DNA of 64,000 bases from Dudresnaya verticillata (Eukaryota), in assembly GCA_977862235.1 (NCBI GenBank), contig OZ374565.1:434001-498000 (forward strand), in the 5' to 3' direction. The position numbers and the translations under genes are program-made. Positions 22,588-49,853 of the stretch are shown here, piece after piece. The notes under the pieces were generated by a model. That model made no database searches. It was not told the DNA's origin and worked only from the letters and a program-made list of their open reading frames with translations. The stretch's first letter is position 1; each line of letters opens with the position of its first letter.

Positions 22588-22599
22588 TCTTATATACTG
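22588..22599 (-). promoter_or_regulatory. Putative TATA box of the vWA gene
   Basis: Minus strand reads CAGTATATAAG about 140 bp upstream of the ATG. Confidence 0.5.
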
Positions 22600-25621: not shown

Positions 25622-27239
25622 CACCCCAACAATGTGGAACGGGTTTGAAGAGCCGTAGTAGCTACTACATTAACAACGTACCAATCTATCGATATCATGG
25701 CGAGGCATGAGAAACTCTAAGCTCCCTGATCCTTCCCTATGCGGGACAAACATAATCAAGATAGCTTTTCTTGACCCGAGTACACTTTGCCTACCTCGGT
25801 AATGATGTGAGGTCGTAGTGGCTGTTAACCGCCGTGCACTCTTTGACCGTCGCCTTTCACATGAATTGTAAGTAGGTCCCCTTAAGGGCTGTAGTCTTAC
25901 CTATGCATGAAGGGCTCCCTCATCGTATTGTTTGCTTGTTTAGGCCAGGGCTTTGTCATGTACTATTGCGGTCTATTTTTCGTCAGTATTGACAATATGC
26001 AGTAATATTGCAATACTGAGAGAAAGGGCAATATTTATTGCTATTTGGTCCAATGTTTCACCAGATCGATTCCTCATATGCTATATGAAATATTCAGTCC
26101 AACGAGTCGGTATCACTATCATAGTATTGGTGACATTGATGTAGTAGACAGCACCCGCACCAACAGCATTAGTAGAATGTTGTCTGTCCAGTGTTCTCTC
26201 GATGACATATGAATGCAATCTTAGGCATTCGTTACTGTTTGGGTGCACTCCGACATATTCTATGAACAATTCCACGATACTTAACATATGCAGTGCAAGA
26301 GAGCAAACGTCTGGCCTTGGTAACTACTCTTGCTGTCGTTTTAAAGTGGACTCTTTTCTGTGTGTGAATCGTTTGATGCGTGTGTGTTGTGTCGTGCTGT
26401 CTATGTATGAACAGCCGAGGCTATGTAGAGCCTCTTCGCCACAACAAAATACTACGAAAGGAATGTATCTGAGATATACTGGCACTACGAGCTGTCACAA
26501 CGCTAGCGGTATATTATTGCCGTAGCTTTGGTGACACTCTACTATCAGAATGCAGCTGCAGTATTCGTGGAGTGCACTCTCTTACATGCAATACTTAGAC
26601 AACTGCCCTATACATACATATATATCTACTATTGAGATATATATTCAACTATATAAATAGTAGCATCTTTTCAGTCTGAAGACTATTTCCATAATGGCCT
26701 CGTTCTTTTCGTAATGGAACTGATACGGCGTTACCAGGAGCACTGTTCCTTAACACAAGCAGCATTTCTTATCTCTCAACTTTTAATTCCTTAAAAGAAA
26801 TACGTCAGCAGGCTGTCGACATCAAGAAAGAGACGACCGCATTTCGAAGCCCAGCATTTGAAGGTTGTCAAGGTACAACCGAGTAAAGGCTTAGAAGCCT
26901 TTAGGGTTACGGTACCTAATTACAGTGTCTTACACCTGGTGATATCGAAAGTGCAGAGTTTGTATGGATCTGGGGCGAATCAGTAGTTCCGGAGAGAGAG
27001 GACGAGTTTGAAGGTCCAGTGGAAGGTATAGAACGTACCCCATTGTGCACCCATTGCCCGAGAAGCACAAACATACGATTTTATGGCAGTGCAAATCCAC
27101 AAGGGGTCCCCAATATCTGATCTGATTGTCGGCGACAGGCCGTCTGCTCGACATCGCCTGATAGAGCGTGATGCGAGGACGTGAGAATATTAATTTCTAT
27201 CACAGATTCGAGTCTGTCTGGGTGTGGTGCAGTTGACAG

Positions 27240-27849
27240 TGTTACACATAGCGCTCGCACTGTTTGGGAGTACTCCCTACAATGGGATCCCAAAGCGCAC
27301 ACGCGACGCTGCAGGGTAATTCCCTAGAATGGGAGCCTGCTGGGGAACGCACTGCTGAACAATGGCAGACCCCACGGCCGATCATGGCTATCGCGCACAG
27401 ACCTGGTGAACCTGCACAAGGCAGAACTGCCGGTCTGACAAGGCGAATTTGCGTCCCTTCGGACAACCCTCTACATCTTATTGGCTAACGCTCAGGGTCC
27501 CCTGACAACAGGGTTCAGACCTGAATGACTTTCCGTCCGTCCCCGACCCACTGTGGGACGGCGGGTGTGAACACATCCACCTGTTCAGGTCTATCTGACT
27601 TGGAGCGGATCCCGCGAGCATGCGGGCCACAAATACTGTGGGTCGCTTTGAGCCGTCCGGCTGTAGAAATAATAAAGCCAGCACGCTGGCGTCGAACGAC
27701 GAAGACGAGGGACAACACACCACTCCTCATCCACGCCGTGACTTTGCCCTCCACTTTGCCAACCCCAACTTTCTCTCTACCGACCTTTTACTTTTCCGTT
27801 TCGCGTTCGCGATCTACTGCTTCGAAGGCAAAAGCGGTTACGCGTCACA
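27240..27849 (+). repeat. 5' LTR of element A
   Basis: TGTTACACAT...GCGTCACA; about 9 substitutions versus 43879-44488. Confidence 0.96.
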
Positions 27850-27899
27850 GTAATTACTTTTCCCCGGAGTAGTTTCGTTTTTGTTGACGAAGCGAGATT

Positions 27900-29665
27900 G
27901 TGTTCACGGTGACCAGCACTAGGAGTGCTACGAATGGATCCAATGCCCAAGATTCATGCACAAAATCCGTGTCCGTCAGACGATCGTCGAAACGGTGGAA
28001 GCGAAGGCTGATAGGACTGTCAACGGCTGACTTCGTCTTGTTCAAGCACGATCGCGAGATCTATGAACGACGAGTCGCTGAGAAGAATTCGGATCCGAAT
28101 GTTAAGATCCAGCTTACGACCTACAAGGACTCTATTCTACCTGCTGTGCTGGAGATCTTCGCACTAGGTGACTGGGTTCCGATGGACACCGTTGATGACA
28201 TCTGTAGTAGAATGGCTTTGAAGCCAACAGAGACGGCGACACGGCACGACAGCTGTCCTCAAAGAGCGATCCCACTCGCGTGGTTGGTAGCTCGGTAAAG
28301 GGGTGGTAGAGACTTGAAAGGGCTTAAAGCCCTAACAAAGGAAAAAGGGATAGGCGAACCCTGCTGAATAGAGCAATTCGTCGTAGACGACAGGGCTTGT
28401 AGACGCCCAAAGGGAAGTTGTAGCGGTAGCACCGTAAGCGTCCAAAAAGGGGAAAACCCAAGGCACAGACCGCTGCCGGTTTAGTGCCGGGCCCCTGCTA
28501 CTCAGGGGCCCCATAAATACAGCGAGAGCCGAAAAGTGCTCCTCGCTCAGTTAGAGCTCTATGGCTAATACTTAGCTAATACTGTACAATACAGGTACGA
28601 TATATCCTTAGATAGGAATGAGTGGTCAGGCCACAAGGCCCGCGCGGCGCCACTGTCAGGCGCCGTGCGGCAAACATCCGCCAGCAATGCATGGCGCGAT
28701 GGTGCGGCCATGGTTAATCCCCAAATGGCACAGGGCCATATTATCTGGAGCAGTGTGCCCTACAGATCAACTCTGTACACGTGTTGCCTTACAGCGCAGG
28801 AGCGTTCCAGCAATGAAATCAATCGGAGCACCAGCCATGTCATCCGGGCAGTTGTGCGCCCGTCATTCCTTACAGAGGACTCGTGTCCACGTGGCTCCTT
28901 ACAGGGCGTCAACGCCCGTTGTACCACAACATCACGGAGAACCATCTTGAGGACTGTGTGGCCAAGCAGGCTGTAGTTAATCCTGATGATTATGATCTTG
29001 GAAAGCTCGATGATTCCCTCAATGACTAGAAGCTCGGACGAGCGGATAGTGAACACAACCTAGAAGCCCAAGTTTAGCAGCTGATCTTTGAATACACCAA
29101 GATCTTACAGAACTGTGGTTACAATAAGTTTGCCGAACGGCACCCGAAGCTTGCCGTGGAGCACATACTGAAGCGTATCACTCACCCGTTCCTGAAGAAC
29201 CGCATGATCATGACTGCGCGTCTGAAGAAGGACGAGGACTTTCAGAAGAACTTCAAAGTTTTCGTACGAGAACTCGCGAAGGAGGCGCGGCTGATCGACC
29301 GCATGAACGCCGCCAAGAAATACAAAGCGCCCGCTACCGCTTTCGACAAGTTTGCTACTCGTGTTGCGGATGATCCGCCGCCGACGGCGCCATACCGATC
29401 GGGTAGTTCCGGTTCCGGACGTAAGAATAAGAACCGTTGTAATAAAGGTGGTGCATCTGGCAGTACTGCAGAAGATGGGAACCACAATCAAGACAAACCG
29501 TTCGGTGGTAACGATGGCAGAGGTAAACACTTTCGCGAACCTCCCCATTGTCTCAACCCAAAGTGCGACAAGCGCCATTGGGTTGATGACTGTGAAATAA
29601 CTGCGGACGCAGAGAAGAAACGTCTCAAGGATGAGTGCCGTGCGCGTTCGCAAGCGCGCAAGTGA
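27900..29665 (+). pseudogene. gag of element A, split by a solo LTR
   Basis: Frame ...WVPMDTVDDI|TENHLEDCVAKQ... rejoins across the insertion. Zinc knuckle CLNPKCDKRHWVDDC; in-frame stops present. The 5' limit is approximate. Confidence 0.82.
28203..28928 (-). mobile_element. Solo LTR (726 bp), B/G-like family
   Basis: Termini TGTAGTAG...GTACCACA with perfect TSD ACATC (28198-28202 / 28929-28933). Confidence 0.95.
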
Positions 29666-29737
29666 TCGAAGCAGGACTCAGAGAAGCGAGAAAACATCGG
29701 ATCTGTAGAACTACCTACCGAAGGAGAACACACTTCA

Positions 29738-30767
29738 ATGTTCTCAGCCTCATTCTGTTCAGGTGCTGTAGAGGTGTCCGCCTTAACCGATCAAGGTTCG
29801 GATGCTAATCTAATTTCACCATCAGTACTGAAGGAGATCTTACAGGCTGACCCAGATGTTCGAGTTGTGACTCTACCAAAGAAGCTGGAGTTCTCCAATG
29901 CTCATTCTTCTGCGGTGAAGATCACGTGCAGCAGGCAAGTATCCGCTGACGTAATGCTACGCGTACGCCATGGTACGAACCTCATGTTGCGAGGAATGAA
30001 GTGGCTGGTCACAAACGCTGCAGTACAGCACGTTTATGTCGGACGACATGTTCTCGCGTCTATAGGGTTGAACAACCGTGTCATGCTCGAGTTCGCGGCT
30101 GATAGATTCGGAGGAGTCGTCGACGTCCCAGAAGTTCTTCATAAGGATGGGAGTGGCGACAATCCTTGCGCCGACGCCGGTGCGTCTATCCATGGAATCC
30201 TTCGCGAACGCGGTTTGGATTTCGGAAGCACCTTCCACAGCAAAGGGGGTGCTGAGGACGATCAACTCGAAGACAGTAACGTCTACGTCGATCTTGGCGA
30301 GGACTCGCCGGATGATTTGAAACAGGCGATCGCCGCAATGGTCGAAGACGCTCGCAACAATGGACTGAGCGATACCGGAGCCGAACGGCTGACCTCTATC
30401 CTGGACAGGTACCCGGTTTTCGGATTCGGCTGGGCAAATCCCAACCAGTCGACGTTCCGCCAATGAGGGTACGACGTCAACAAGGATACCGACCGGTACG
30501 TTTGAAAGCAAGGAGATACTCCGGTGAACAAAGGAACTTCCTGAACGCGCGCGTCGTACGCGTACGTGGATCGGCTCAAGGAGATGGAATTTTCGAGGAG
30601 ATGACAACCGCCAAATGGCAAGCGGCACCTCTCCTTGTGCCGAAGCCTGGTTCCAGAGCTGGGTATCGTATGACCGTGGACCTTCGTCCGGCCAATGGCG
30701 CGACAATCAAAGAGTCGTGGCCAATGCCTCATCTGGACAGCGAGGTGTATGATTTCTCAGGGAGCAC
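29738..30767 (+). pseudogene. pol 5' part of element A: aspartic protease and RT N-terminus
   Basis: ALTDQGSDANLI protease motif; WQAAPLLVPKPG, YRMTVDLRPAN and WPMPHLD RT motifs; frameshifted. Confidence 0.9.
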
Positions 30768-31606
30768 TGTGGTGCAAGGGAAGGGCTGCCCCTTTTTCGC
30801 TGTGAGCGTATTATATGCCAACGTCTACCGACGGCACGTCGACCGCCGTTGGCGCGCGAACACGTCATGGACGGTTGGCCCACGGGCATACGGCCGCCGT
30901 TACCCGGCGCGGCGCACGCGCCCACTGTACGGCCAGATCCAGATGCACGATCCGGATCGGCCAGGCGCAAGGCGCACGCCTGTAAGCCTGGCCCGGATCC
31001 GGATCGGATCCGGATGGGACATCGGGATCCGGCATCGGGATCCACAGTGATGTAAGGAGCGCGTCTGTAATGGCCGCGCGCCAGCAATGCTGGTAGGGAT
31101 CTGGATCCGAATCCGGATCACCCACAATGCTACACGCATGCGCCTGTAAGCTACTCCTGAGCTCCCGCGCGCGCGGCTGCATGGCGACGACGACGTGTCA
31201 GACACTCGACGACGCGACACGCGTCCTGAGTCCCCGCGCACCGCGCCTGCCGCCGTCACTCACGTAGTATATGAGGTAATCCGTCTGAGACGCTGAGTAA
31301 ATCCCGGACAAGCCGGCCTTGGTCCAGACTTCCCCGTTCCGCACGCGCGTACCCTACCGCTGCCTACGGCTAAGCGTCTACCTCCCGTGCTTCTACGTCT
31401 ACCATCGTCCTTGACGTGCTCCCTTTCTGTTTCCTTTCCCCTTCCTTCACACCTTCCGCCTCGGGCGTCTACAGTCCGCCCAAGGCGTGCCCCTTTTGCT
31501 CTACCAACAACTCGCCCACGGCGGGACCACCTACCGCCAAGGGCGCAGCTACCCACCGAGCCCCGCACTGCTCGGCGGTCTATCGTCTCGGACGTTTTGC
31601 ACCACA
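30768..31606 (+). repeat. Complete 5' LTR of insert H (839 bp)
   Basis: Termini TGTGGTGCAA...TTGCACCACA, followed by a PBS. Confidence 0.9.
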
Positions 31607-31608
31607 TC

Positions 31609-31621
31609 TGGTCTCCCGACC
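31609..31621 (+). promoter_or_regulatory. Primer-binding site TGGTCTCCCGACC (possibly tRNA-Tyr)
   Basis: Starts with TGG 2 nt after the LTR. It is complementary to a tRNA ending ...GGGAGACCA, as yeast tRNA-Tyr does; the identity is tentative. Confidence 0.7.
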
Positions 31622-31810
31622 TAAAATTGTGCTACGTTTCAACGAGTTACTCCGTCGTGCGACGTCCGACTCTTCGTCTTCAGACGTTTGTCGCTAATCG
31701 TCCACGACGTTCAAGCAACTCTACGATTGTATCATGGCCTCACGACCGCCGCCGTCGAGAGGCCCAAGTTCAAGAAGACCGTCTTCGACGCCAGGGAGTG
31801 TACCCGCGTC

Positions 31811-33182
31811 ACAAGCGCCCTCGGAATGCAGCCGCGCGCCTGACACATTTGCCCACGCCACCGCGCGCGCCGCGCTAATGCTTACACCTACACGTGTTCA
31901 CGCACCGCGCTTACAGACTCTTGGTCCCATTGTCCTCCGCTGCCCTGTGACACGTGCCACGTGTGCAAGTATGCCACGGGGCGCAGCAGCGTGACCCAGT
32001 AACTACACCTCACGCGTTCTCTCAACCCGACATTGCCGTCACTATCCGCTGTGAGCGGGAGGTCTGGTTCTTGACCAAGTTGCCCGACAAAGTCGAATGA
32101 CTAGCGCCATCGGCGGAAACAGGGATCACGAGCGGGTTCGCGCCTCGAGCTCAATCCCAGTCGCCAAAGGCGGTAGAAACGTCAAAGACGGGAGCTATCC
32201 GTCTAGGACGGTACAGAGCGCCAGCGGCGTTGGATAATTTGCACCATATGGCCCCCTTCCAAAACGCGAACACGCGAAGAAAATTCGTGAGGAACGTATT
32301 ATTACCGGCCGTGCCGTGGTTATGTCACTTCCATTCCCCTCAAGGACGTGCGGCGTTGCCGAGTTTCCCGTCATAAGACGACTTGAGCAATTCACTAGTA
32401 GCGGTGTGCCCAGGGCTCCGAGGTCACCGGTGGTAGAACGTCCAAGACGGTTATCCCCGTGTAGGGCGGCTACCAGCGCTGCGCAGTAGCCGGGCGTCCA
32501 CGCGCATAAATAAACGATAAATTTTGACGGCATGCAGAAGCGCACCAATCAGCGTTCAATTTGCGTGCGGCGTGAAGCGCACCAATGAGCGCTCAATTTG
32601 GGTGTGCGCAGGTCACGTGCCTGTAAGCCCAAGCGCACCAATCAACGTCCAATTTGCGTGCAGCGCGAAGCGCACCAATGAGCGCGCAATTTGGGTGTAA
32701 GGCGAAGCGCACCAATGGGCGTTCAATTTCCTGGCGCACAGGTCACGTGCCTGTAAGCTCAAGCGCACCAATGAGTGTCCAATTTGCGCGCGGGGCGAAG
32801 CGCACCAATCACCATCCAATTTGGGTGTAAGCTGAAGCGCACCAATTAGCGCTTGATTTCCTTGTGCACAGGCCATTCGTCTGTAAGGCGGAGCGCACCA
32901 GTCATGCGTCGGGGGCTCTTACGTTCGGCGCGGCGTGCAGTGAACCGCCATCGGCGGGCGTGATCGTCAGGGACGGTATGAAAAACGCTAATGCGTGCGG
33001 TTGCGTCTTTGACGATATGGCGCGGCATGGCGCGGGTGCGGCCCAGCCGGAAAACGTCTGTGACGATATTGTGCGGCATGGCGCGGGTGTGCGCCATCCG
33101 GAAAACGTCTGAGACGGCATATCCTGGGATGGCGCAGGTATGCGCCAGCCGGGAAGCGTCTAGGACGATATAGCGCGGCATG
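31811..33182 (+). repeat. Long inverted repeat X, left arm (partner 38793-40162)
   Basis: Reverse complement matches with about 8 differences. The ORF track is mirrored (32195-32548 vs 39427-39780; 32613-32876 vs 39099-39362). Confidence 0.97.
32537..32903 (+). repeat. AAGCGCACCAAT repeat cluster with ~130-bp higher-order unit
   Basis: Nine copies spaced about 37, 57, 36, 37, 57, 36, 37, 57 bp; mirrored at ~39072-39438. Confidence 0.92.
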
Positions 33183-35497
33183 GCGCGGGTGTGCGCCAGC
33201 CAGAAAACGTCTGAGACGGTATATCTTGGGATTGCGCAGTTGTGCGCCAGCCCGGAAGCGTCTCGGACGATATAGCGCGGCAGGGCGCGAGTGCGTCTCA
33301 GCCGGAAAACGTCAATGACGATGCAAAGCGGCCGCGGCGGATCACCGTGTGGCCTCAAACGTCAATGACGATATGTAACGTCGATAACGATAAGATTCGG
33401 CACATTTCTGCTTACCCGAGAACGAAAACGTCAATGACGATATGCAACGTCTATCACGATACGAAGCGGCTCGTTCAGGGTGACCACGAACGTGCCAACG
33501 TCGATGACGGTGAAACGGGGCACTTCGCAGGTAAGCGCGTGCCCCAAAACGTCGATGACGACATTGAGCGTCGATGACGATAAGAAGCAGCTGTGGCGGG
33601 TGACCGGGTGGACCACGAACGTTCAAACGTCGACGACGGTGAAAAGGTGCACAGTGGAGGTAACCACGTGTCCCAAACGTCAATGACGCTATTGAGCGTC
33701 GACAACGTTGCAAAAGGGGTCGACAAGAGTGACCGCGTTGACCAAAATGTCATTGACGGTATGCAACGTCGATGACGATATTGAGCGGCCGTGTTAGGAG
33801 CCTGCCCCTACTAAAAACGTCGATGACGATATGAGACGTCCATGACGGTACGAAGTGGAACGGCATGGGTTACCGAGTACAACAAAACGTCAATGACGAT
33901 ATTCAACGTCGGTAACGGCACGAGGCGGCACATGCGGTTGACCCCGAGTACCAAAACGTCCATGACTGTGAAATGACGGTACGAAGCGGCACATGGCAGC
34001 TGTCCGTGAGTCTGCAAACGTCTGTGACGGTAAACTTGGCAGTTCGCGTGTGATCGCGTGCACGTAACGTCAATGACGACACGCAACGTCGATGACGGTA
34101 TGAAGCAGCACATTGCGGGTGCCGCGATCCTTAAGACGTCGACAACGGTGAGGTGTGGCTCGAGGAGGGCAACCGCGTGCACTAAAGCGTCAATAACGAT
34201 ACAAAACGTCGATGACGATTCGAAGACGCCGTTGCCGGAGACCGCGAGCCTGAGCACGTCGACGACGGCACCAAATGGCACTGCACGGGTTACCGCGAGC
34301 CGGGAAAACGTCTATGACGGTATTGAGCTGGCATGGCGCGGTGATTCGCAAGCCGGGAAACGTCTGTGACGGTGTGTATCTGTGTGCTGCGAGTGAACGC
34401 GCAACGGCAGAACGTCTGTGACGGCGTATTTCGGCATAGAACAGGGTTGTGCGAGCCGTGTGCGAGCCGCGACCCGCACCAAAACGTCAATGACGATACG
34501 AAACGTCGATGACGACAGGAAACGGCACGTTTCGGATGACCACGAGCCGGAGAACGTCGACGACGGTGCTATATCGCACTAAGTGGCTGACCGAATTCAC
34601 TAGAACGTCGATGACGATACGAAACGTCGAAGACGATACGAAGCTGTCTTTGCTTGTGACCACGGGTACCAAGTGCTGCAAAGCGTCAGTGACGGTATAA
34701 AGCGACGTTGCGTGGGCTTCACCGCGCGACTGAAGAGCAGGAAACGTCAATGAAGGTAAAAAGCAACATGTCGCGAATATCGGCGAAACGTCATTGACGG
34801 GATATCAAGGCAATAGGCCGGTTGCAGCAGAGCGGGAATCGTCGGTGACGGTAGAGAGCAGCATGGCACCGATATTCTCGTGGCATGAAACGTCCATGAC
34901 GATAATGAAACCACATGTGCCAGGTTTCTGTGTACTCGACGTCGACGACGATATACCGCAAGAGGGATCGGGTGATCACGAGTTTGCAATCGTCGATGAC
35001 GGAAAACACAGTATGGCGTGAGTAACCACGATCCAAGAATCGTCTTTGACGCTAAAATGCGTCATGAGACGGTTGGTCGCGTTCCAAGCGTCGATGACGG
35101 TATCAATCGCTTCAGCGAGATAGTGCGGCTGAGTACGCATCGGTGATCGTACATGACGGAAAAGGCAACATGGTCCACATGTCGTGAGTAACCATGCGAA
35201 TGAATCGTCTGTGACGGTGCAAAGCGGCACGCCGGGCATGGAACGCGAAGTCGCGTGCAGAACGTCAACAGTGATTAACAACCAAGTGGAGACCCCGGAG
35301 GGCCCGATTTCGATATTGTTCCAACGTCTCAAGACGGGTAAGTGTTACACCGACTCTGTCGAACCGATGAATCGTCGAAGACGTATTGGTGCGTACTGCG
35401 GTCTTGAACGTCAACGACGTTTTTGGTGGGATGGGTGTCCGGAATCACAATATCCAGTGGATATTCGGCCAAGCCGGCTTGAGCTCCGTCATCGACG
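33004..35497. repeat. Phased array of the palindrome CGTCnnnGACG with diverged spacers
   Basis: About 50-55 perfect or one-mismatch copies, mostly 50-52 bp or 19 bp apart. Confidence 0.95.
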
Positions 35498-35699
35498 CTC
35501 TATTGTTAGACTTGAACTTGAGCGCTCGGATGCACGGAGGGCAGACTCGCCAGAGGCGGAAATACGGATGACGACACGTTCGGCAGGGGATATAAAGATC
35601 CCCTGTTAGGCGAACGGTCGGAAACGTCGCATATCGGCATAGCCGGGAGAGCCGAAGCAAACACGGGGCGGACACGGTATTCCGACTTCATCGTCATGC

Positions 35700-37786
35700 G
35701 TCTTGACCGTTCGAACGATGGTTCACTGCCAATCGCCCATGACGGGCGCCTTGAAGAGGCCCCAGGGGACAGTGATGGTCGGGACGGACCCACAGTATTC
35801 TCAAAAACGTAGAAAAACGTCGTGGACGAGTAGCGAAACGCTTTGAAAGCGGTTGATCGGTCGTCGCACGACGTTGCAGTTCGTAGAAACGTAGTCCGTC
35901 CGCAAGTGGTCGTACCCTGCGCGTTACGCGCTCGCTTACTCCACCTCCGGCACCACGCCAAGTTGGCAGGGCACCCAGGGGGGCGTAAGTTGTATCATAC
36001 GCTTCGACGCGAATACTATTGGCCATCGATGCCAGTGGACTGCTATGCGACCGTCCGCAACTGCGTAACCTGCGCTAAGAATCGCGTATTGCTGCGAAAG
36101 AACACCAAGTAATTGAAGTTGTTCCCGGCAACCGAGCCTCTCGAATTCGTATCGATCGACATCCTGGGCGAACTCATACGCACGAAGCGAGGAAACAAGT
36201 TCCTACTCGTCATTGTGGACCGCTTTTCGAAGCTGGTCCGGACGGTCCCACTGCGTAGTATTGCGGCATTGGAAATCGCTAAGGCGTTTGTACGAAATTG
36301 GGTCTTCGGGTACGGTCCTCCCAAGACATTGTTGTCCGACAACGGACCACAGTTTGTGGCTAAGCTGTTTCAGGATATCTGCCGTCTTTTGGGAGTGGAG
36401 AATCTCTTCACCACGACGTACCATCCGCAATGCAATGGCCAGGTAGAACGATTCAATCGAACTATCCTGGCCTCGCTGCATCACTACGTCGCGGATCATC
36501 CGAGAGACTGGGACCTGTTCACGGATGCCTTGACGTTCGCATACAACACCCAGTTGCATTCTTCTACGCATCTCGCTCCGTTTGAATTGGTGCTGTCTAA
36601 GCCACCACGGCTATTGTCGCTCGAAGCGGAACCGTCGCTCGAAAGTGTACCCACCGCGGGGCAATACTACACCAAGTGGCGAACCTGGCTGGCCGCACTG
36701 ATGGGAGCCGCTAAAGCGTCGTTGGAGAAAACTCAAGCACGTTACAAACGACACTTCGATACCAGATTAAGGAAATCGAAGGAAGCAATCGCCATAGGCG
36801 ACTTCGTATTCGTACGTAAGGAATACTTCGCCCCAGGCGGGAGCACGGATAGCGCAGAGCGTAAGCATAAGCTGGCACCAGTGGCGGACGGACCATACTG
36901 GGTAACTCACGTTGATAACGAGACAGTAACCGTCGACAAGGGACGGGATGAGCGGGAACGTTTGTCCCAAGATCGCGTGGTCTGGGCGCCGACCCCACCG
37001 GGTCAGGCGGCCCCTCCAATCGTCGTACCACCAGGCCCGCCTGAGGAGCAGGGAGCAGTCGCCCCCACGTCACACGACGAAGGGATGACTACCCCAAGCA
37101 CGCCGCCAGCGGACCCGGAAGAGGACGCAGACACTTCGCATACTGCGAGAGATCCGCAAGAGCGTACGATCGCAGCGTCACGCAGTCGTGGGTTGGCAGA
37201 GCGTTCGCCCTTCGCCGCCGATCCCGACGACCGCGCTTCGCAATCCGTCTCCAACGACGACAGTACCCCAGGGGTTCGCACCCGTTTGGAACACGTCGCT
37301 ACGGCACCGCCGAATGAGAACAATGACTCAGCTGAAAGCGCGTCCGATAACGAAGACGTTAACCGTGCAAGCACGAAGCAAGGCGCTGCAAGCGATGAAA
37401 TCGTCTCAAGACGCAACAACCCACTGGCCGCTGATCGAGCGTCCGAGGCCCAAGGCCAACGCCTTCGGCGATCAACTCGTCGAGTACGCTTGGCCGAACC
37501 GGAACAGACGCCCATCACGCAACGAGACAAACCGCCAAAGGCGCTGGACAGGCCCACGTCCAAGCCGAACGCTGTGAGCGGAAAATAATACATGATTGAA
37601 CGCATCGAGTCGCACGCGTACGCGGATGATGATGAGATCCTCTACCGCGTCAAGTGGTTTGGATACCCCGCTTCAGCGAACACCTGGGAGCCAGTCTACA
37701 GTTTTCCGCGATCCCACGTCACACGATACCACCGTCGAAAACGTACGCAGCTACCGCCAAACGTCGACGACGCGGAGCGCGGCTAA
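35700..37786 (+). pseudogene. Gypsy integrase with C-terminal chromodomain, belonging to insert H
   Basis: HHCC zinc finger (HHAKLAGHPG...CVTC), DDE core (VSIDILG, LLSDNGPQF, NGQVERFNR), GPY module, ~200-aa disordered spacer and chromodomain IERIESH...YRVKWFGYPASANTWEP. In-frame stops near 36110 and 37586. The 5' limit is approximate. Confidence 0.93.
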
Positions 37787-38792
37787 CCCTAATCCGGAAA
37801 TACCGCTGGAAGCGAATGGACGGACGATCGAGACCGCGTGTTCGACCTACGATCGCCAAAGGCGCGGAAGCGCAACCCATAGCCTGTGGACGCGGTCGCC
37901 AGAGCGACAGCGCCAAACACGTGTGCACACCATGGACGAACGCGGACGCAAGTCGTTGCGTCATAGACAGCCTCTCGCACGCCACCTCGCAGCAGCCCCA
38001 ATACGGAACCTCTGGATGGGTGCGCTGTTGACAGTGGATCCAGATCGCAAATCGAGATCCACCACCGGCGCCCCTCAGGTAATAGGAGGCAGTAGTTGGT
38101 CAAATTTTAATTTCCAAACACGGCAGCGCGCACCACCCCGCCGTCAACGCACGACGAACGCAATCATGCCAAGTGGCTGATCAGGTGCTACGAGCCCCAG
38201 CGACGACAGGCTCAAGTGGCAGCGCACAACAACCGTCTCCGACGTCGAGACGTGCACTCGCCCCACGGCCAAGTCCCTGGGACCGCCACCCTGCCGGCCA
38301 CGGTCTCGCGCGCAAGCACCCGTCGAACGTCTCCGACGTATCTTGCCGGAGAAGGGGCGCACCGACAAACCCACCCCCGAAGGGGGGGAAGATGGTTGAA
38401 GACGCATTTGCTGTGGGTTCCGTGCACGACGCGCCAACAAATCGCCAACGACTCCACCGCTGCCCGTGGCCGCCGCGGTCGCAGTCGCGCGAGCGCGACC
38501 GACAACTCTACCCTACCCCCAAGAAGGAACGTCGAAGACGAAAGGGGCGGCAACGCTAAGGCGTCAACACCTACCTCACCGCCTTCGCGACCCTCGTTGA
38601 GGACGCCGACAAACCACGCCTAAGGCGCAGTGCGACACATGCATTATAAAAACGCTAAGTAAGCGGAAATACACCAACGCCGCACGTGAAACACGAAGAA
38701 AAACGCTACTACAGTGGACACTACCAGCCAAACACAGCCGCAGCGCAACGCACGGCCAAGGCTAAAGGCATCAAACGCCAACGCTACGGTAG

Positions 38793-40162
38793 CATGCCGC
38801 GCTATATCGTCCTAGACGCTTCCCGGCTGGCGCACACCTGCGCCATCCCAGGATATACCGTCTCAAACGTTTTCCGGATGGCGCACACCCGCGCCATGCC
38901 GCACAATATCGTCACAGACGTTTTCCGGCTGGGCCGCACCCGCGCCATGCCGCGCCATATCGTCAAAGACGCAACCGCACGCATTAGCGTTTTTCATACC
39001 ATCCCTGACGATCACGCCCGCCGATGGCGGTTCACTGCACGCCGCGCCGAACGTAAGAGCCCCCGACGCATGACTGGTGCGCTCCGCCTTACAGACGAAT
39101 GGCCTGTGCACAAGGAAATCAAGCGCTAATTGGTGCGCTTCAGCTTACACCCAAATTGGATGGTGATTGGTGCGCTTCGCCCCGCGCGCAAATTGGACAC
39201 TCATTGGTGCGCTTGAGCTTACAGGCACGTGACCTGTGCGCCAGGAAATTGAACGCCCATTGGTGCGCTTCGCCTTACACCCAAATTGCGCGCTCATTGG
39301 TGCGCTTCGCGCTGCACGCAAATTGGACGTTGATTGGTGCGCTTGGGCTTACAGGCACGTGACCTGCGCACACCCAAATTGAGCGCTCATTGGTGCGCTT
39401 CACGCCGCACGCAAATTGAACGCTGATTGGTGCGCTTCTGCATGCCGTCAAAATTTATCGTTTATTTATGCGCGTGGACGCCCGGCTACTGCGCAGCGCT
39501 GGTAGCCGCCCTACACGGGGATAACCGTCTTGGACGTTCTACCACCGGTGACCTCGGAGCCCTGGGCACACCGCTACTAGTGAATTGCTCAAGTCGTCTT
39601 ATGACGGGAAACTCGGCAACGCCGCACGTCCTTGAGGGGAATGGAAGTGACATAACCACGGCACGGCCGGTAATAATACGTTCCTCACGAATTTGCTTCG
39701 CGTGTTCGCGTTTTGGAAGGGGGCCATATGGTGCAAATTATCCAACGCCGCTGGCGCTCTGTACCGTCCTAGACGGATAGCTCCCGTCTTTGACGTTTCT
39801 ACCGCCTTTGGCGACTGGGATTGAGCTCGAGGCGCGAACCCGCTCGTGATCCCTGTTTCCGCCGATGGCGCTAGTCATTCGACTTTGTCGGGCAACTTGG
39901 TCAAGAACCAGACCTCCCGCTCACAGCGGATAGTGACGGCAATGTCGGGTTGAGAGAACGCGTGAGGTGTAGTTACTGGGTCACGCTGCTGCGACCCGTG
40001 GCATACTTGCACACGTGGCACGTGTCACAGGGCAGCGGAGGACAATGGGACCAAGAGTCTGTAAGCGCGGTGCGTGAACACGTGTAGGTGTAAGCATTAG
40101 CGCGGCGCGCGCGGTGGCGTGGGCAAACGTGTCAGGCGCGGCTGCATTCCGAGGGCGCTTGT
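38793..40162 (-). repeat. Long inverted repeat X, right arm
   Basis: Reverse complement of 31811-33182. Confidence 0.97.
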
Positions 40163-40709
40163 CACACGCACGACGGAACGACACGTGTCCTGAGTTCCCG
40201 CGCGCCGCAGCGCCACCGCCGTCGCCCACGCAGCAGTAGTAATACTTAGGTAACCCGTCTAGGACGTCCCAGTAAACCCCGGCAAGCCGGTATGCCTTCA
40301 CACTTCGCCCCTTCGCTCGTTAGCGTCACTGCCGCTACCGACGTTGGCTACGCGTTGCGACGATCGCGCTTCCGCGTCAATGTCCGTCTTTGACGTGTAT
40401 CCCCTTTTGTTTTCCCCCTTTATGGCCTTGGTAGCCGAATGCCCCTTCCCGCTAGTGTGTGCGTCGCCACCGCTTCCGTTAGGCAAAGCGTCGGTACCAC
40501 CGTCCCTCCACGTGCAACACCGTCGTTGACGTGTTTCCATTTCCGTCTTGTCTCGTTTCTTTGGTTTCGATCTACCTACCGCCCAGGGAGTTTACAGTCC
40601 GCCTTGTGGCGTTGTCCATGCTCTACCACCCCTACCGTCTCTGACGTGCTACCCGCCGGGTCTCGAACTGCCCGGGCATGTTTTTCCGTCCTAGACGTTT
40701 TGCACCACA
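40163..40709 (+). repeat. 3' half of a diverged H-family LTR, direct orientation
   Basis: Resembles 31203-31606 (GACACG.GTCCTGAG...GGTAA.CCGTCT..GACG...AGTAAA) and ends GACGTTTTGCACCACA. Confidence 0.82.
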
Positions 40710-41144
40710 TCTGACACGTCGTCGTCGCCATGCAGCCGCGCGCGCGGGAGCTCAGGAGTAGCTTACAGGCGCATGCGTGTAGCATTGTGGGTGATCCGGA
40801 TTCGGATCCAGATCCCTACCAGCATTGCTGGCGCGCGGCCATTACAGGCGCGCTCCTTACATCACTGTGGATCCCGATGCCGGATCCCGATGTCCCATCC
40901 GGATCCGATCCGGATCCGGGCCAGGGTTACAGGCGTGCGCCTTGCGCCTGGCCGATCCGGATCGTGCATCTGGATCTGGCCGTACAGTGGGCGCGTGCGC
41001 CGCGCCGGGTAACGGCGGCCGTATGCCCGTGGGCCAACCGTCCATGACGTGTTCGCTCGCCAACGGCGGTCGACGTGCCGTCAGTAGACGTTGGTATATA
41101 ATACGCTCACAGAGAAAAAGGGGCAGCCCTCCCCTTGCACTACA
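40710..41144 (-). repeat. Inverted copy of the 5' half of LTR H (30768-31202)
   Basis: Reverse complement matches with about 8 substitutions in 435 bp. Confidence 0.96.
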
Positions 41145-41149
41145 AGCAC

Positions 41150-43838
41150 GTGTTTCGCCTCCCTGGATTTCGTGTCGGGTTATTGGCAGCTTCCACCGCA
41201 TCCCGATTCCTACACCGCGTGTGGCGTCATCACACCGCGCGGGGTAATGATATCAAAACGCGTGTTGGATGATCTGGCGAACGCCCTGGCTTTTTCCAGA
41301 GCTCGGTCGAGCCTCTATTCGCCAGCCTGCGTGATTTTCTGAAGGCATGGCTGGACGATTTCAGCCTTCACGCCCCATCCCAGGAGATTCTTTTGGACAA
41401 TCTCGAGATTTTTCTCTGCATTTGTAAGGAGAAGAGATTGTGGCTTTCCGCACGGAAATGCAAACTCTTTCGCAAGAAACTTCGCTGGTACGGTCGCATT
41501 GTGTCTGGAGAAGGGTACACACTCGACCCCACACGTCTTTCGGGTTTGCAAGAAATGGGAACCCCGAAGACTGCGGAAGAACTTGCGCAGTTCATCTACT
41601 GCTATCGCTGGATGTCGCTCGCCATCCCCGACTTCGCGCGCCGCATCGCGCCGCTCAACAACATCTGGGAAGAGGCGTACGCCAAATCTGGAAGCGTACG
41701 AAGAGATCTATCCGCACGATCGCGCTCAGTAACCTGTCTTGGGGGTCCCCGCATGAGAAGGCCTTTCTCGATCTTCAAGACAGCCTACGGACCGCTGTCA
41801 CCCTCTCTTATCCGGATCCGGACAAAGCTATTTGCGTATTCACCGATGCGTCCGAACGGTTCTGGTCTGTCGTTGCCACGCAGTGCGACGAATTAGATCT
41901 GAAGAAGCCGGTCGGCGAACAGAAGCATGAACCCCTCGCATTTTTGGGTTCCCAGTTTACAGGCGCATCGTTGAACTGGTATACCTTCGAGAAAGAAGGA
42001 TTCGCGGTGTTCCAGACCTTTGAGAAACTCGACTACATGCTGCTTGGTCACGCGCGTACTCACGCGTTCACGGATCATCGAAATCTAATGTTCGTGTTCG
42101 CACCTCTTGCGCTGGAACCAGCTCTTGGAAGGCACATTGTCTCAAAAGTTCAACGTTGGGCTCTGTACTTGTCCAAGTTCAGCTACGTCATTGAGCACAT
42201 CAAGGGAGAAGAAAATGTGTTTGCAGATATTCTTACTCGCTGGGTCAAGGGCTACCGCAACGAGAAGTCAATGCTATGCAGCGTTATACTCGGAGAAGCT
42301 GAACAGCTCATCCCTGCCGCCGACGCAATTGTCTGGCCGGATATCGAAGTGATTCGCGACTCACAAGCGTCTCACACACGCACTGAAGGAGTACTCCTTG
42401 ACGAGGATGACAGATTGTGGAAGAAAAGAAATCTCTTCTAGATTCCGAAGGAGGACCTCGAACTCAAGCTCACAGTAATTGTGTGTTCACACTGTGGTAC
42501 AATCGGACACCGAGGTATGGATGCAACCAAGAGCATCATACTCGAGAACTTTTGGTGGGAGACCAAGAAGGAGGATGTCGACGAGTTGGTTCGCGGATGC
42601 CTACACTGCATCGTAACTCGTACGGGGGAGATCGTCCCGAGACCGCTCGGACACGCTCTGCACGGCGAACGCCCTAATGAAGTTGTCCACGCCGATTTCC
42701 TTTCCATGGGTCAAGGTGTGGACGAGAAGAAATACGTCCTCATCATACGGGACGACTTGTCCTCGTAAATCTGGCTTTGGCCAACAGACGAGGCGGACGC
42801 CAACGCTGCCGCTGCTGTCCTGAACTCCTGGGTTGGCAGCTTTAGTTCTATGGATTGGCTGGTCAGCGATCAGGGCTCCCATTTCAAGAACAAACTACGC
42901 AAGGAGATGGTGGAAGAACTGCGTTCGCAACATCATTTCACCACGGCTTATTCTCCGTGGGCGAACGGTTCCGTCGAGAGAGTTTGCCGCGAAGTCCTTC
43001 GTGCGTGCCGCGCGCTGCTCAGCGAATGGAAGCTATCGCCGAAGGATTGGCCTACAGTAACCGAGTAGAACATCATCAATCAAGCTCCGCTTCGGAAGCT
43101 CGGCTTCGCGACGTGGAAGTGCCAGGTGTACACCGCACTCCGCTCGAGGTCTTCACAGGACATCGACCTGTGCGTCCTCTACTGAGAGCCTTACCGAAGA
43201 ACAAGTACCGGTCGGCCAAAACAATCGAAGAGCTACGCGCACGCGCGCTTCTAAACATTGATCAACTCCAGGATGCGTTGTTCAACGTTCATCGAGATGT
43301 GAAAGAGATCTCAAGTGCTGCGCGGAAGAGAAAGGTTGACCAACACAACAAGCGCACGAACGTTCACCGCGCTAACTTCATCGAAGGCGACTTTGTCCTC
43401 GTTCATCGCGCTCAGCCCGGTGGACACATGCTGAAATTGGTTTGGCGAGGACCTCGCCGCGTCACACAAGTCCGTTCGGAATGGGTCTTCGAGATACAGA
43501 ACCTCATAACGGACAAAAGGGAAGTGGTGCACGCGCGCCGCTTACACCTTTACCGCTCGGATATGGATTGCAAGGAAGTCCTTCCTGCACTGCTTAAAGC
43601 TGCGGAGCACTCCGAGACAAGCTACCAGATTGCCGAACAAATACGCGGCATCAGCGAAGTTGATGGGAACTCCAGATTCACTTGGAGTGGAGTGGGCTCC
43701 CCGATGAGGTCGACTGGACCTGGGAAACCTTTCGCCAAGTCTTCGAGGACATGCCTGGACTGCTCGAAGATTTTCTCCACACTGCCGGGACCCGCAGTCT
43801 CAAACGACGCGCGCTCGCGCAATGCAATTTCTCGTAAC
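41150..43838 (+). pseudogene. pol 3' part of element A: RT, RNase H, integrase, chromodomain
   Basis: RT KAWLDDFS; RNase H FTDASE, EKEGFAV, FTDHRNL, VQRWAL, NVFADILTR; integrase HCGTIGH..CLHC, VSDQGSHF, NGSVER; chromodomain-like LEWSGLPDEVDWTWE. Stops and frameshifts present. Confidence 0.93.
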
Positions 43839-43878
43839 CAAGCTTCTTTGTTCACGCTGAACAGAAGCTTGGGGGCAC

Positions 43879-44488
43879 TGTTACACATAGCGCTCGCACT
43901 GTTTGGGAGCACTCCCTACAATGGGATCCCAAAGCGCACACGCGACGCTGCAGGGTAATTCCCTAGAATGGGAGCCTGCTGGGGAACGCACTGCTGAACA
44001 ATGGCAGACCCCACGGCCGATCATGGCTATCGCGCACAGACCTGGTGAACCTGCACAAGGCAGAACTGCCGGTCTGACAAGGCGAATTTGCGTCCCTTCG
44101 GACAACCCTCTACATCTTATTGGCTAACTCTCAGGGTCCCCTAACAACAGGATTCAGACCTGAATGACTTTCCGTCCGTCCCCGACCCTCTGTGGGACGG
44201 CGGGTGTGAACACATCCACCTGTTCAGGTCTATCTGACTTGGAGCGGATCCCGCGAGCATGCGGGCCACAAATACTGTGGGTCGCTTTGAGCCGTCCGGC
44301 TGTAGAAATAATAAAGGCAGCACGCTGGCGTCGAACGACGACGACGAGGGACAACACACCACTCCTCATCCACGCCGTGACTTTGCCTTCCACTTTGCCA
44401 ACCCCAACTTTCTCTCTACCGACCTTTTACTTTTCCTTTTCGCGTTCGCGATCTACTGCTTCGAAGGCAAAAGCGGTTACGCGTCACA
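43879..44488 (+). repeat. 3' LTR of element A
   Basis: Direct repeat of 27240-27849. Confidence 0.96.
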
Positions 44489-45946
44489 AGAGCAATGAGG
44501 AAGCGATGATTCTTTTTAATGAATGTGTACGGTGGTCTTATGCGTGGGGCTGTTCCCGACAGGCAAGCATACCGGTGGGGTTTGGGTCTATCCTATGGAA
44601 GGGTTTGAGTTATGTGAGAACCTAAAGGGTTTTTTGGGGGACCCGAAAGGGTAAAATCGTGCCTGCAGGCGTCTCGGATGGACGAGATTGCACCGACGAT
44701 GGCGCAGAGATTACATGCGCCAAGTGATGGTAGCGAAAGGGCTTTCAGAGACTGGGCCAGGAGTTGGGCTTCTTCGTCGAAAAATGGGTACCGAGGCGGG
44801 ATGAGGAACGTCCAGACGTGCCACTGATTTCCGCTTTCCTCCTCTGCGGTTCGACAACTTCAAGACAGGTGCTAACCGGTTTGCAGAGTACACAGGGCCA
44901 GGGAATCGCCCAGATAATTCCGCAAACCATTCTTGTAGCAGCGCTTCGCGCAATTCCCTCTGCGCTCCTGTGTGTCGGGGTGCTTGGCACCAAAAACACG
45001 TTGTGTAGTCTTAACAGCAAGTGTTATTTGAGCAAGCCGGGAGATCAGAAGTTTTGCTACGTCAACAAGGTTTCGTAACCCGCGCGCATCATAGTGCCCT
45101 AAAACGTATGCTGAGCGTTAGAAAAGGATGTCCGATGCGGAAGAGGTCCCTGAGATCCTGCTAACGTGTGGCAGTGGTAACAAAATTGCCGTCAGGAACG
45201 CAAAAGCTGCTCTAGAAGTCACTCAGAGGGACACAGGTGTAGAGAAACCTCGGGGTAGAGGACAGGAGTCCGTCTACAGTACGTTTAATGTGGTGAAGTG
45301 GGGTCGGCTGCGTACGAGCGCAGATGAAGTGCCTAGATACGCAGGGTAGTGTGCAATCGCAAGCGTAGGTTCAGATGCCGCAGGTCTTCACTTAGGCTGA
45401 AATGTATAGGACTATTGCCGATTGGCATCACAACACTTTACGTATGTGTACAGACGGACCTACGCTGTATAGCGACTAACTTACCCAAGAGCCGGCAGCT
45501 CACACTGTTGCTCAGTCAGCAGTGGCTGCGACGCTTCCCCGGCTCGGGTTCACGGAGAGCGCCTCTGGGTGGCGCTTCGGCCAAAAGACACAGCCAATCA
45601 TGGCGGTTTACACTTACGGTGCCGTCACGAAACGCAAACCGCGAAGCTCCGCACCAATTACAAAGCGGAGCGCCGCTTAACATTAATTTTGTGCACTCTA
45701 CAGTACGCACTGTACTCTAATTTATGGGAAAATTCCCCCGGTCAAGGACACGCGATGGACTCCGCGATAAGTTAGAGCGAGGATGGTATGCCGCGGCACG
45801 GAGGGGAAGGGTATTCGGTCAATGCAAAGTTTACTTAGGCGTTACAACGCGGAAAGGTCCACTAGCTAATCGGGCGCTCCCCCACTCACACCAATCTACT
45901 ATCCCTAGGGAGCGTCCGATGCGAGCACTACAATGAGGAAATGACG

Positions 45947-48277: not shown

Positions 48278-49052
48278 GCGGGCCGAAAAGAGTAGTGAAG
48301 CGGAGCGCCGCGCGGATGAGATCTTCTACTTGAGTTCTTCTCCCTGAAGCTTGAAAACTTGAAGGTCTTCTGCCTGAGGTCTTCTACCTGAAAGCTTGAG
48401 CCTGAGACTTGATGGTCTTCTCCCTGAGATTCTTGAAGGTGTAGCAACACCGGCACAACCGGCCGCGCCAACAAGGCGATGAGAAGCGACGGCGAAGCGC
48501 GCAGTCGCGTGAGCACCGCTCCGAAGCAGCTCGCGGAAGCGCCGCTGCGTACGACGCCGTGCAGGGAAGGGCGAGCGCGATTCGCGTTATGAAAGGAAAG
48601 ACGCGCACGCCGCGTGGGAGTAATGAAGGATGAAGGCCGGAGGGCGACAAAGGAGGAGAGAGAAGGAAGCCGATGGCGCAGCGCAGCTGGGAACGTTGAA
48701 GAGCGTTGAGTTGCTGCGGGCTGTTGATGCCGAGACGTGAGAAGTCGCAATCGGGTTGCAACCCTTTGCTTATATAGCCGCGCCGCCGCGCCAAAATTGG
48801 CTCACGCAAACTCGTGAGCCGCAATGCTCACGAGTCGCCGACGTCGAGACGGGCGTGCCCGCACACTGAGGTGATGGCCCGCGATGACACGCATGTAACC
48901 CGGGCCTGCACGGCCGCTGGCCCGACTTAATTCCCCACCGGGCGCGATACATAGACAGACGTTGGGCGCTCAACCGCTCAGGAAGGAGATTTAAGATTCA
49001 GAAACCGCCAATCATAGCCTCGCGGGCCGCTTCGGTCTTCAGAGGGGGGCTG

Positions 49053-49853
49053 TGTGGCAGTATGGACGCTGTCAGCAGAAGGGCTTACAGAAGCGCACTT
49101 CTTTTCGCGGGACAGACTGTCCCTTAATCAGGACAGCTGTCCTTTCATCGCTGTACACGTGGATGACACTTGGGATACACGTGTGTACACGTGGACTTAC
49201 AGCTGCACACGTGGCATACACGTGGCCTTGTAATGACGCCAGTTGGGCGTCTCGTATTGGCTGATTTATGACGCGCCGCTGCGCTCCTACTCACGGACGA
49301 GGAGCACCTCTGCGCTCAGGGTATCGACAGTGCAGCCGGGACCTCGGCTTGCGCACCGGCGCATCCGCCACCAAGTCCCCTAACTGGAATGCATTCCCAC
49401 TTTTGACTTGTACTGACTGTACTAATCTTTGTATCTATAATCGTAGACTAACTTATACCCCCTTTTGGGCTGATAGAGTTTTCGGCTGTCAAGCCCTACT
49501 TATGGGCGCCGGAATAGCCGGCGCCCTCAGAATAAACACTCAGCGGAGTTGTCCGGGAAGTTTCCATCTTTTGGTCGCTCGGACGCTCCGCGCCTGCAGG
49601 GGTCGCCCAGTACAGGCCCGGACATCGTACGACAAGTACTCTACGAAACACCGGGTCGCAACCTCTATACTTTCCTTCAGTCGGTCGCGCCGAGTCTTTA
49701 CCTTGCTTCCGCACCCCCCCTTTCGGGTCATCAGGGCCCGCCTTTTCCAAGCCTCTACCAATCCTCCCTCGAGCTACCACCAATTAGCGTGTGACATCGG
49801 ACAGCTGTCTTTTCTTGTTCTTTGCTGTTTCTGGCCGCTGCCATACTGCTACA
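49053..49853 (+). mobile_element. LTR B, copy 2
   Basis: Duplicate of 4892-5692. Confidence 0.88.

Follow-up and report, generated by a model that had tools for sequence, protein, structure and literature searches.

The insert and its target site

This work concerns an abnormal long terminal repeat (LTR) retroelement insert in the genome of Dudresnaya verticillata (Eukaryota), found in a 64,000-nucleotide stretch of DNA (assembly GCA_977862235.1, contig OZ374565.1, positions 434,001 to 498,000 of the forward strand); the whole stretch is referred to below as the window, and all coordinates are window positions. The locus is occupied by a plus-strand Gypsy element (27237-44488), here called the host element, whose LTRs (27237-27849 and 43876-44488) are 98.37% identical, with differences at 10 of 613 positions (1.6%), and whose reverse transcriptase (RT) is split by an insert of 10,377 bp (30768-41144). 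The first letters of the insert are TGTGGTGCAA and the last are TTGCACTACA, giving termini of TGTGG...CTACA, which are of the TG..CA type. The pentanucleotide AGCAC flanks the insert on both sides (30763-30767 and 41145-41149) as a perfect 5-bp target-site duplication (TSD), for which a simple count gives a chance of matching of 1 in 1024. A preliminary description of this DNA had proposed the same TSD and the same TG...CA ends, and both are borne out. A 10.4-kb defective Gypsy-type copy lies inside another Gypsy element, probably as a single TSD-flanked integration.

The left copy of the TSD lies inside the host RT open reading frame (ORF), with AGC as an in-frame codon at 30763; the right copy presents AGC in frame as well (frames from 30316 and 41088). 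The host RT frame is therefore kept once the insert and one copy of the TSD are removed, giving ..DFSGST / STCFASLDFVSGYWQ, a spacing that we take to be the usual one for these RT motifs. A Pfam search of the two short flanks of the host RT alone gave no match, and RVT_1 is found only downstream of them (41273-41893); the colinearity of the host RT therefore rests on codon phase and on the usual motif pattern. To the right of the insert this gene is spread over two reading frames that overlap (41088-41339 and 41273-41893); apart from the insertion, the host copy must therefore contain one frameshift or more.

Two unlike LTRs in direct orientation

The left end of the insert is formed by LTR_a (30768-31606, plus strand, 839 bp), which starts with TGTGGTGCAA and ends with TTGCACCACA, its edges being marked by a 10-nt terminal inverted repeat (30768-30777 and 31597-31606). 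Its upstream part (30768-31202), a putative U3 (unique 3' region; U3_a), recurs inverted at the right tip, and its downstream part (31203-31606) is a putative R-U5 (repeat and unique 5' region). Two nucleotides (TC) after LTR_a there is a site resembling a primer-binding site (PBS), TGGTCTCCCGACC (31609-31621, plus strand), and this is followed by a unique leader of 183 nt (31622-31804, plus strand) without similarity to the LTR parts in either orientation. The left end had been described as a full LTR followed by a PBS, in agreement with this arrangement.

A second LTR, LTR_b (39727-40709, plus strand, 983 bp), lies close to the right end. It starts with TATGGTGCAA, ends with TTGCACCACA, and consists of an upstream part of 442 bp (39727-40168; U3_b) and a downstream part (40169-40709). 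A polypurine run, GGAAGGGGG (39715-39723), ends 3 nt before the start of LTR_b, the intervening letters being CCA; it is one of eight purine runs of at least 9 nt in the 10,377-bp insert. The layout of this putative polypurine tract (PPT) and LTR start matches the corresponding junction of the host element, where GGGGG-CAC is followed by the TG of the LTR.

Both LTRs are in plus orientation, yet they are not a matching pair. They have in common the terminal motifs, a 13-nt block placed at position 75 in both, a core of 30 nt immediately ahead of position 435 and the whole of the downstream part, which is ~70% similar in direct orientation; the upstream parts are of similar length (435 and 442 nt) and are otherwise unalignable. 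The homology of the segments that lie between the inverted pairs described below (31203-31804 and 40169-40709) is in direct, not inverted, orientation, with alignments of 31171-31432 to 40136-40412 (70.8%, E 1e-23), 31356-31480 to 40469-40603 (69%) and 31548-31610 to 40648-40713 (74%). Global alignment of the two segments scores 129 directly and -115 in reverse complement, and the local score of the downstream LTR parts is 116 against a shuffled null of 21 +/- 2.4. The terminal 10-mer TGTGGTGCAA, with at most one mismatch, occurs 12 times in the window compared with 4.4 expected, a count reached in none of 100 shuffles. Half of these 12 matches are inside the insert, at 30768 (+), 31597 (-), 32239 (-), 39727 (+), 40700 (-) and 41135 (-), and all six fall at predicted LTR termini.

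Judged from these similarities, the right LTR is a direct LTR preceded by a putative PPT and belongs to a lineage that differs from LTR_a. The right end of the insert had been reported as inverted instead of a direct repeat, a claim that does not hold: a complete, diverged direct LTR (39727-40709) stands directly inside the inverted tip. The related picture of an element ending in two inverted LTR 5' halves is correct for the inverted tips themselves; it missed that the element is a chimera of two LTR lineages, with a putative PPT and a direct LTR on the right.

On their inner sides, both LTR ends have flanks that appear to be imperfect inverted copies of one another. Read in reverse complement, the end of LTR_a with the PBS-like site (31585-31640) is TTTTAGGTCGGGAGACCAGA followed by TGTGGTGCAA, which resembles the PPT and LTR_b start on the plus strand (39700-39745), TTTTGGAAGGGGGCCATA followed by TGGTGCAA.

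Inverted pairs and novel junctions

The two tips of the insert are reverse complements of one another: 30768-31202 (X) and 40710-41144 (X', minus strand), the latter being the reverse complement of LTR_a positions 1-435 and flush with the TSD, differ by 8 mismatches over 435 nt. Their identity of 98.16% bears out the ~98% previously given for this inverted right tip. A second inverted pair, of 1372-1378 nt and 99.2-99.3% identity, is formed by 31805/31811-33182 and 40168/40162-38793. Its left member (Y', 31805-33182, minus strand) is an inverted copy of 38793-40168 and contains the reverse complements of U3_b (31805-32248) and of the PPT (32252-32260), 130-bp repeats (32537-32926) and a 51-bp array. 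The right member (Y, 38793-40168) is made up of U3_b and of the 3' region before it (Z, 38793-39726, plus strand), in which three 51-bp units (38793-38945), inverted with respect to the arrays at 33-35 kb, precede 130-bp repeats (39075-39464) and GGAAGGGGG with CCA.

With the remaining segments labelled L2 (31203-31804), C (33183-38792; the tandem arrays, integrase and chromodomain) and R2 (40169-40709; the rest of LTR_b), the plus strand reads X-L2-Y'-C-Y-R2-X'. The minus strand reads X-RC(R2)-Y'-RC(C)-Y-RC(L2)-X', where RC denotes the reverse complement. X and L2 together are LTR_a, the PBS-like site and the leader, while Y and R2 together are Z, the PPT and LTR_b. Each LTR is followed by the inverted upstream part of the other, with the reverse complement of U3_b and its upstream sequence after the leader, and that of U3_a after LTR_b.

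Four junctions are novel in comparison with normal elements. J1 (31804/31805) joins the leader to the reverse complement of the upstream part of LTR_b; J2 (33182/33183) lies within the 51-bp array, in register; J3 (38792/38793) is at the edge of the three-unit array of the 51-bp repeat, in opposite orientation; and J4 (40709/40710) joins the exact end of LTR_b, with its CA terminus, to the reverse complement of LTR_a from position 435 to position 1. On the minus strand J4 reads ..GTGTCAGA followed by TGTGGTGCAAAACG.., at the exact LTR terminus. The junctions named in the preliminary description (31810/31811, 38792/38793, 40162/40163 and 40709/40710) match the edges of the inverted pairs.

Both inverted pieces start at a homologous LTR position, namely LTR_a 433-435 at J4 and the equivalent of 431-437 at J1. 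The landmark shared by these positions is a TGTCA that both LTRs conserve, ~20 nt downstream of a likewise conserved GCGCGGCTGCAT, and agreement of J1 and J4 by two unrelated breaks is unlikely, at a rough estimate of ~1% or less. At J4, 2-4 nt, TC(TG), are shared with the LTR_a/PBS-like junction and with the LTR_a sequence; this match could reflect an unprocessed complementary DNA (cDNA) end, microhomology or a joint made by integrase. The landmark in LTR_a is also a small palindrome (31195-31205, GTGTC A GACAC), while the homologous site of LTR_b, CTTGTCACACG, is not palindromic.

Tandem arrays occupy 33183-35080 on the plus strand, beginning with 51-bp units and continuing with units of 60-70 bp that carry CGTCAATGACG cores; these ~2 kb stand in the place of gag-pol. 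The 51-bp units at 32994, 33045, 33096, 33147, 33198 and 33249 keep a spacing of 51 that is unbroken across 33182/33183, and the three inverted 51-bp units (38793-38945) end at 38793. Over 177 nt, 33106-33282 and 38795-38971 are 84% complementary. Considered together, the arrays at 32994-35080 and 38793-38945 consist of 51-bp and 60-70-bp units around a near-palindromic core, CGTCAATGACG / CGTCGATGACG, and recur inverted after the chromodomain. Protein-binding sites and a satellite seed are candidate roles for them.

Protein-coding remnants

We scanned for domains in 120 open segments of at least 45 amino acids on both strands of the insert, covering 31097-39126 and 40078-40815. Retroelement domains were found in only three: Integrase_H2C2 (PF17921, E 2e-16) in ORF 35834-36109, rve (PF00665, E 4.6e-13) in ORF 36113-37585 and Chromo (PF00385, E 1.6e-09) in ORF 37589-37783. 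These ORFs share one frame with two in-frame stops between them. The integrase remnant (35846-37585, plus strand) comprises an H2C2 zinc finger (~35912-36085), a stop (36110-36112), the rve core (~36131-36427) and a GPY/F-like region, before the second in-frame stop (37586-37588); the chromodomain follows (37589-37783, plus strand). The DDE integrase with a chromodomain noted earlier is thus present in all three parts. The same 120 segments contain no gag, protease, RT or RNase H and no tyrosine recombinase domain, and the integrase frame has no start codon upstream of the zinc finger.

When 11 related polyproteins were compared with the DNA by tblastn, homology in the insert began at 35846-35960 for 10 of them and at 36107 for the eleventh; in 6 of the 11, the RT/RNase H portion at the N-terminus is matched by the host element only. 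A protein search with the integrase gave 243 of 7995 scored candidates at E <= 1e-3, the best being 64% identical. Those relatives that have names are proteins of Chondrus crispus and Agarophyton chilense; RVT_1 and RNase H domains are present in several of the matches. On sequence similarity, the integrase is closest to red-algal chromovirus polyproteins and is a fragment of pol, and the relatives point to a florideophyte red alga as the probable source of the window. It is only 32% identical to the integrase of the host element over 77 residues. As only integrase and chromodomain are coded, with homology that starts inside pol, this copy must have depended on enzymes supplied in trans.

Divergence of the arms, further copies and genomic context

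The differences between the inverted arms are clustered. Six of the eight X/X' mismatches fall in the outer 88 nt (Fisher p = 0.0012), and of the 9 mismatches and one 2-nt indel that separate Y' and Y over 1378 nt, 3 mismatches and the indel lie in 43 nt beside J1, compared with 6 in the other 1335 nt (p = 0.00015). The bulk of the arms (0.45-0.6%) is, by this measure, younger than the host LTR pair, and the patches of higher divergence point to a contribution from several templates or from conversion at a later time.

Comparison of the insert with the rest of the window gave no match and no second copy within it. A 20-nt LTR-end motif common to LTR_a and LTR_b had no matches in metagenome contigs, and in prokaryote genome contigs it gave one chance match of 21 nt, in otherwise dissimilar sequence. 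An integrase scan of the metagenome contigs recovered 29 loci, the best 54-62% identical and on contigs of at most 1.2 kb, too short to display the architecture.

The window also contains a direct repeat of 19.8 kb (1-19840 and 44162-64000) with a period of 44,161 bp and 99.85% identity (29 substitutions and 1 indel). It starts inside a host-type LTR (1-327 matches 27523-27849 at 98.5%) and reaches the end of the window. This repeat is either an LTR-bounded tandem segmental duplication, which would take in the host element together with cellular genes, or redundancy left unresolved in the assembly, and a further copy of the insert may be situated immediately beyond the window. The host element has no matching TSD, its flanks being GACAG on the left (27232-27236) and AGAGC on the right (44489-44493), which fits a right LTR that is the junction of the large duplication and not the original flank. 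An RRP5-like gene (13685-20050, minus strand; S1, OB_RRP5 and HAT repeat domains), partly within the duplicated 19.8 kb, and a gene for a protein with two VWA domains (20702-22633, minus strand) lie beside the elements; with these cellular genes the locus is therefore ordinary nuclear DNA.

A model for the origin of the insert

Both tips of the insert are U3_a starts that are flush with a perfect TSD, and the DNA joined by integrase therefore carried one and the same end on either side, a result that rearrangement of an ordinary element in place would not readily produce. Both strands of the insert begin at nucleotide 1 of U3_a, where a plus strand primed at the PPT naturally has its 5' end, and each later runs as a minus-sense B-type 3' region, that is, RC(U3_b), RC(PPT) and RC(Z), where A-type and B-type refer to the lineages of LTR_a and LTR_b. 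We propose that the insert is a defective chimeric DNA of chromovirus type (Ty3/Gypsy), which errors in the reverse transcription of two related RNAs had produced before it was integrated, and which an integrase inserted by joining two identical U3_a ends; we would give this reading a probability of roughly one half. It would make the insert a rare fossil of a replication accident rather than a new kind of element. Other TSD-flanked elements with complex structure or unlike LTRs have been proposed to form before integration (PMC1950507; 10.1101/452573), and ~20 nt of a U3 or U5 end has been found enough for integrase in vitro (work cited in PMC7240061).

In detail, priming from the PPT would have started each strand as plus-sense DNA at nucleotide 1 of U3_a, and the strand would then have carried on as a minus-sense copy of B-type RNA. 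The switch would have taken place at the shared landmark, probably the point where transcription starts and otherwise the 3' end of the RNA, which would serve as acceptor for end-to-end template jumps. Two nascent strands would result, a short one (S1 = X L2 Y') with its 3' end in the copy of the three-unit array, and a long one (S2 = X RC(R2) Y' RC(C)) ending in the upstream arrays. Their 3' ends would be complementary because the B-type RNA would carry the 51-bp array in opposite orientations around the integrase. S1 and S2 could then anneal through the inverted 51-bp arrays, each being extended to the 5' end of the other, and the product would be a duplex with U3_a at both tips in which both strand orders are reproduced exactly. 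Integrase supplied in trans would then make the 5-bp staggered insertion. Annealing and mutual extension would account for J2 being in register, for J3 lying at the array edge, for both tips being flush, for X' as a run-off copy and for the asymmetry of the arms (L2 versus R2). The clustered mismatches of the mosaic arms are as expected where more than one template was copied. Among the options that the preliminary description left side by side, a two-molecule cDNA with two U3 ends fits best, given the flush U3_a tips, the perfect TSD and the unlike arms.

Several points weigh against this model. Besides the annealing step, it calls for unusual strand transfers at two points at least, J1 and J4, and the mosaic arms possibly imply more than two templates. 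The switch of A-type plus-sense DNA to a minus-sense copy at the landmark is not explained by any known intermediate unless the landmark is an RNA end, and the TCTG at J4 could be microhomology or chance (1 in 256). A tRNA gene search of the window found none, so the PBS-like TGGTCTCCCGACC was matched to no tRNA. The insert is a single copy in the window, and with the 99.85% identity of the 19.8-kb direct repeat the assembly may hold redundancy nearby.

Several simpler origins were considered and rejected. The fold-back cDNA offered earlier as an option, an intramolecular event, predicts RC(R2) in the left arm; the middle segments are instead homologous in direct orientation, and the arms differ, with the rest of LTR_a, the PBS-like site and the leader on the left and the rest of LTR_b on the right, both in sense orientation. 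Simple inversion through the inverted repeats would leave the orientation of the terminal LTRs unchanged, with no U3 start flush with the right TSD, and the flipped segments are only 70% alike compared with 98-99% for the arms. Concerted insertion of one cDNA into another would leave one U3 and one U5 tip. A convergent LTR pair, in which the 198 nt downstream of LTR_a (31608-31804, PBS-like site included) would be an inverted R/U5, was dismissed for want of similarity in either orientation. Tf1-like self-priming was set aside as the sequence after the landmark, judged by eye, is not complementary to the PBS-like site. Polinton/Maverick elements were discarded with no polymerase, protease or capsid domains among the 120 open segments.

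Rearrangement after insertion had also been suggested, and among precise rearrangements only one specific path is possible. An A-type LTR would have inserted in inverted orientation at the AGCAC target and become, or already been, a solo LTR; a plus-oriented element would have nested at LTR_a 435/436; and a 410-bp deletion between two direct copies of TGTGGTGCAA, one from the reverse complement of the LTR_a end and the other from the incoming LTR_a start, would have left the flush left tip. J4 would then be an integrase-like product, an exact LTR_b terminus on an internal LTR_a position, with the 10-nt terminal inverted repeat of the LTR supplying the direct 10-mers for the deletion. Nesting does occur here, as the insert itself lies within another Gypsy element, and the X/X' divergence (1.8%) resembles that of the host LTR pair (1.6%). 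Three rare steps are required, however, and the incoming element would still have unlike LTRs and the internal inverted duplication (Y'), so that the oddity is merely moved. Nor does this path give a reason for J1, where the left side is not an LTR terminus, to fall within ~6 nt of the position homologous to J4, and the second copy of the nested TSD is gone, leaving no positive support. We consider this sequence of events unlikely.

The termini, TGTGG and TGTAG (TGTNR type), and the 5-bp TSD would also suit a family mobilised as DNA in the manner of Ginger elements, with long imperfect inverted arms (X..Y' and Y..X') and integrase only, of which the insert would be a single decayed member. Its coding content is confined to integrase and chromodomain, subterminal tandem arrays are present, and one round of normal reverse transcription would not yield unlike LTRs. 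Against such a family stand the nearest named relatives of the integrase, which are red-algal polyproteins with RT and RNase H, and the homology itself, which begins abruptly inside pol without a start codon and is broken by two in-frame stops. The PBS-like and PPT sites occupy precisely the places that a retroelement requires; no part of the arms has diverged more than the outermost 88 nt of the tips, to which a transposase would be expected to bind; and a second copy was not found in the window. A mobile DNA family is on this evidence improbable. Still more doubtful is the extended form of this idea, in which the unit represents the beginnings of a DNA transposon derived from a chromovirus, with integrase only and with LTR-derived inverted arms sharing a U3 terminus, moved as DNA by a Gypsy integrase. 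If the inverted pieces were instead mis-joins of the assembly, the true locus would be an ordinary element, and the 19.8-kb direct repeat of 99.85% identity in the window could be unresolved redundancy. The sequence at J1 and J4, however, is unique, no more than 4 nt being shared, so that these are not repeat-induced joins; the arms are not identical, with 8 and ~11 clustered differences; and both outer junctions independently place the U3_a start at the same 5-bp target in equal codon phase. An assembly artefact is therefore very unlikely.

If the preferred reading, a chimeric cDNA joined through two U3 ends, is true, the insert is a natural record of two different retrotransposon RNAs copied together into one chimeric DNA. 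It would indicate that nascent cDNA strands are able to act as primers for one another where they carry internal inverted repeats, and that an LTR-retrotransposon integrase can make a normal 5-bp insertion in the cell with two same (U3) ends. Co-copying, mutual priming and U3-U3 joining have so far been mostly the subject of test-tube work or indirect inference. Such an event would also be a possible route for LTR elements to gain terminal inverted repeats, a structural step towards a DNA-transposon lifestyle. Were the insert instead a DNA transposon at its birth, red algae would offer a case, independent of the Ginger elements, of an origin parallel to theirs.

Relation to known systems

A literature search on inverted LTRs in LTR retrotransposons and reverse transcription returned work on DIRS elements only; the architecture of the insert was not found in it or in further literature searches, which is no proof of absence. 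The proposed mechanism has a counterpart in copy-back or self-primed products of viral polymerases, in which a nascent strand copies another back to its 5' end and so acquires complementary termini. Products of this kind are described for defective genomes of RNA viruses and for self-priming of retroviral strong-stop DNA. To our knowledge, they have not been described as integrated, TSD-flanked retrotransposon copies.

The insert resembles non-autonomous derivatives of Ty3/Gypsy chromoviruses, such as those similar to large retrotransposon derivatives (LARDs). The TG..CA termini and the 5-bp TSD are common to both, and the order of LTR, PBS-like site, putative PPT and LTR would be so as well. 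The insert codes for an integrase with H2C2, DDE and GPY/F-like region and for a chromodomain, and has no gag or RT, so that it likewise relies on enzymes in trans. It differs in that its LTRs do not match, that an extra inverted U3 stands at the right tip and that there is an internal 1.38-kb inverted duplication.

DIRS elements typically make no TSD. They are retroelements with inverted terminal repeats and in this respect resemble the insert; they use a tyrosine recombinase (PMC7192593, PMC3950715), whereas the insert has a DDE integrase and a 5-bp TSD. The insert had already been set apart from DIRS elements, a distinction borne out by the recombinase-free domain scan and the perfect 5-bp TSD.

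Ginger elements (the DNA transposons Ginger1 and Ginger2, the latter also TDD) are bounded by TGTNR termini and by TSDs of 4-5 bp and use Gypsy-like integrases with GPY/F (PMC2836005). The insert resembles them in its Gypsy-like integrase, TGTNR termini, short TSD and inverted termini. The terminal inverted repeats of Ginger elements measure ~40-270 bp and their transposase is a stand-alone gene of a separate clade (PMC2836005); the inverted tips of the insert, in contrast, are 435 nt long and LTR-derived, and its integrase is part of pol and lacks a start codon. The insert further differs from Ginger elements in possessing PBS-like and PPT sites.

In its probable origin the insert is like complex or abnormal LTR insertions (Sabot & Schulman 2007, PMC1950507; Zeng & Sun 2018, 10.1101/452573). 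They too are TSD-flanked single insertions and chimeras of two related elements, with unlike LTRs in one TSD-bounded unit, and are attributed to template switching or cDNA recombination before integration. The published cases have LTR-internal-LTR-internal-LTR structures or swapped LTRs, all in direct orientation (PMC1950507; 10.1101/452573). The insert lacks the three direct LTRs with a highly similar outer pair that mark the type of Sabot & Schulman, and has instead two direct, unlike LTRs together with inverted partial copies. Compared with these complex insertions, it stands apart in that each LTR is followed by the inverted upstream part of the other and in that both tips are the same U3 end.

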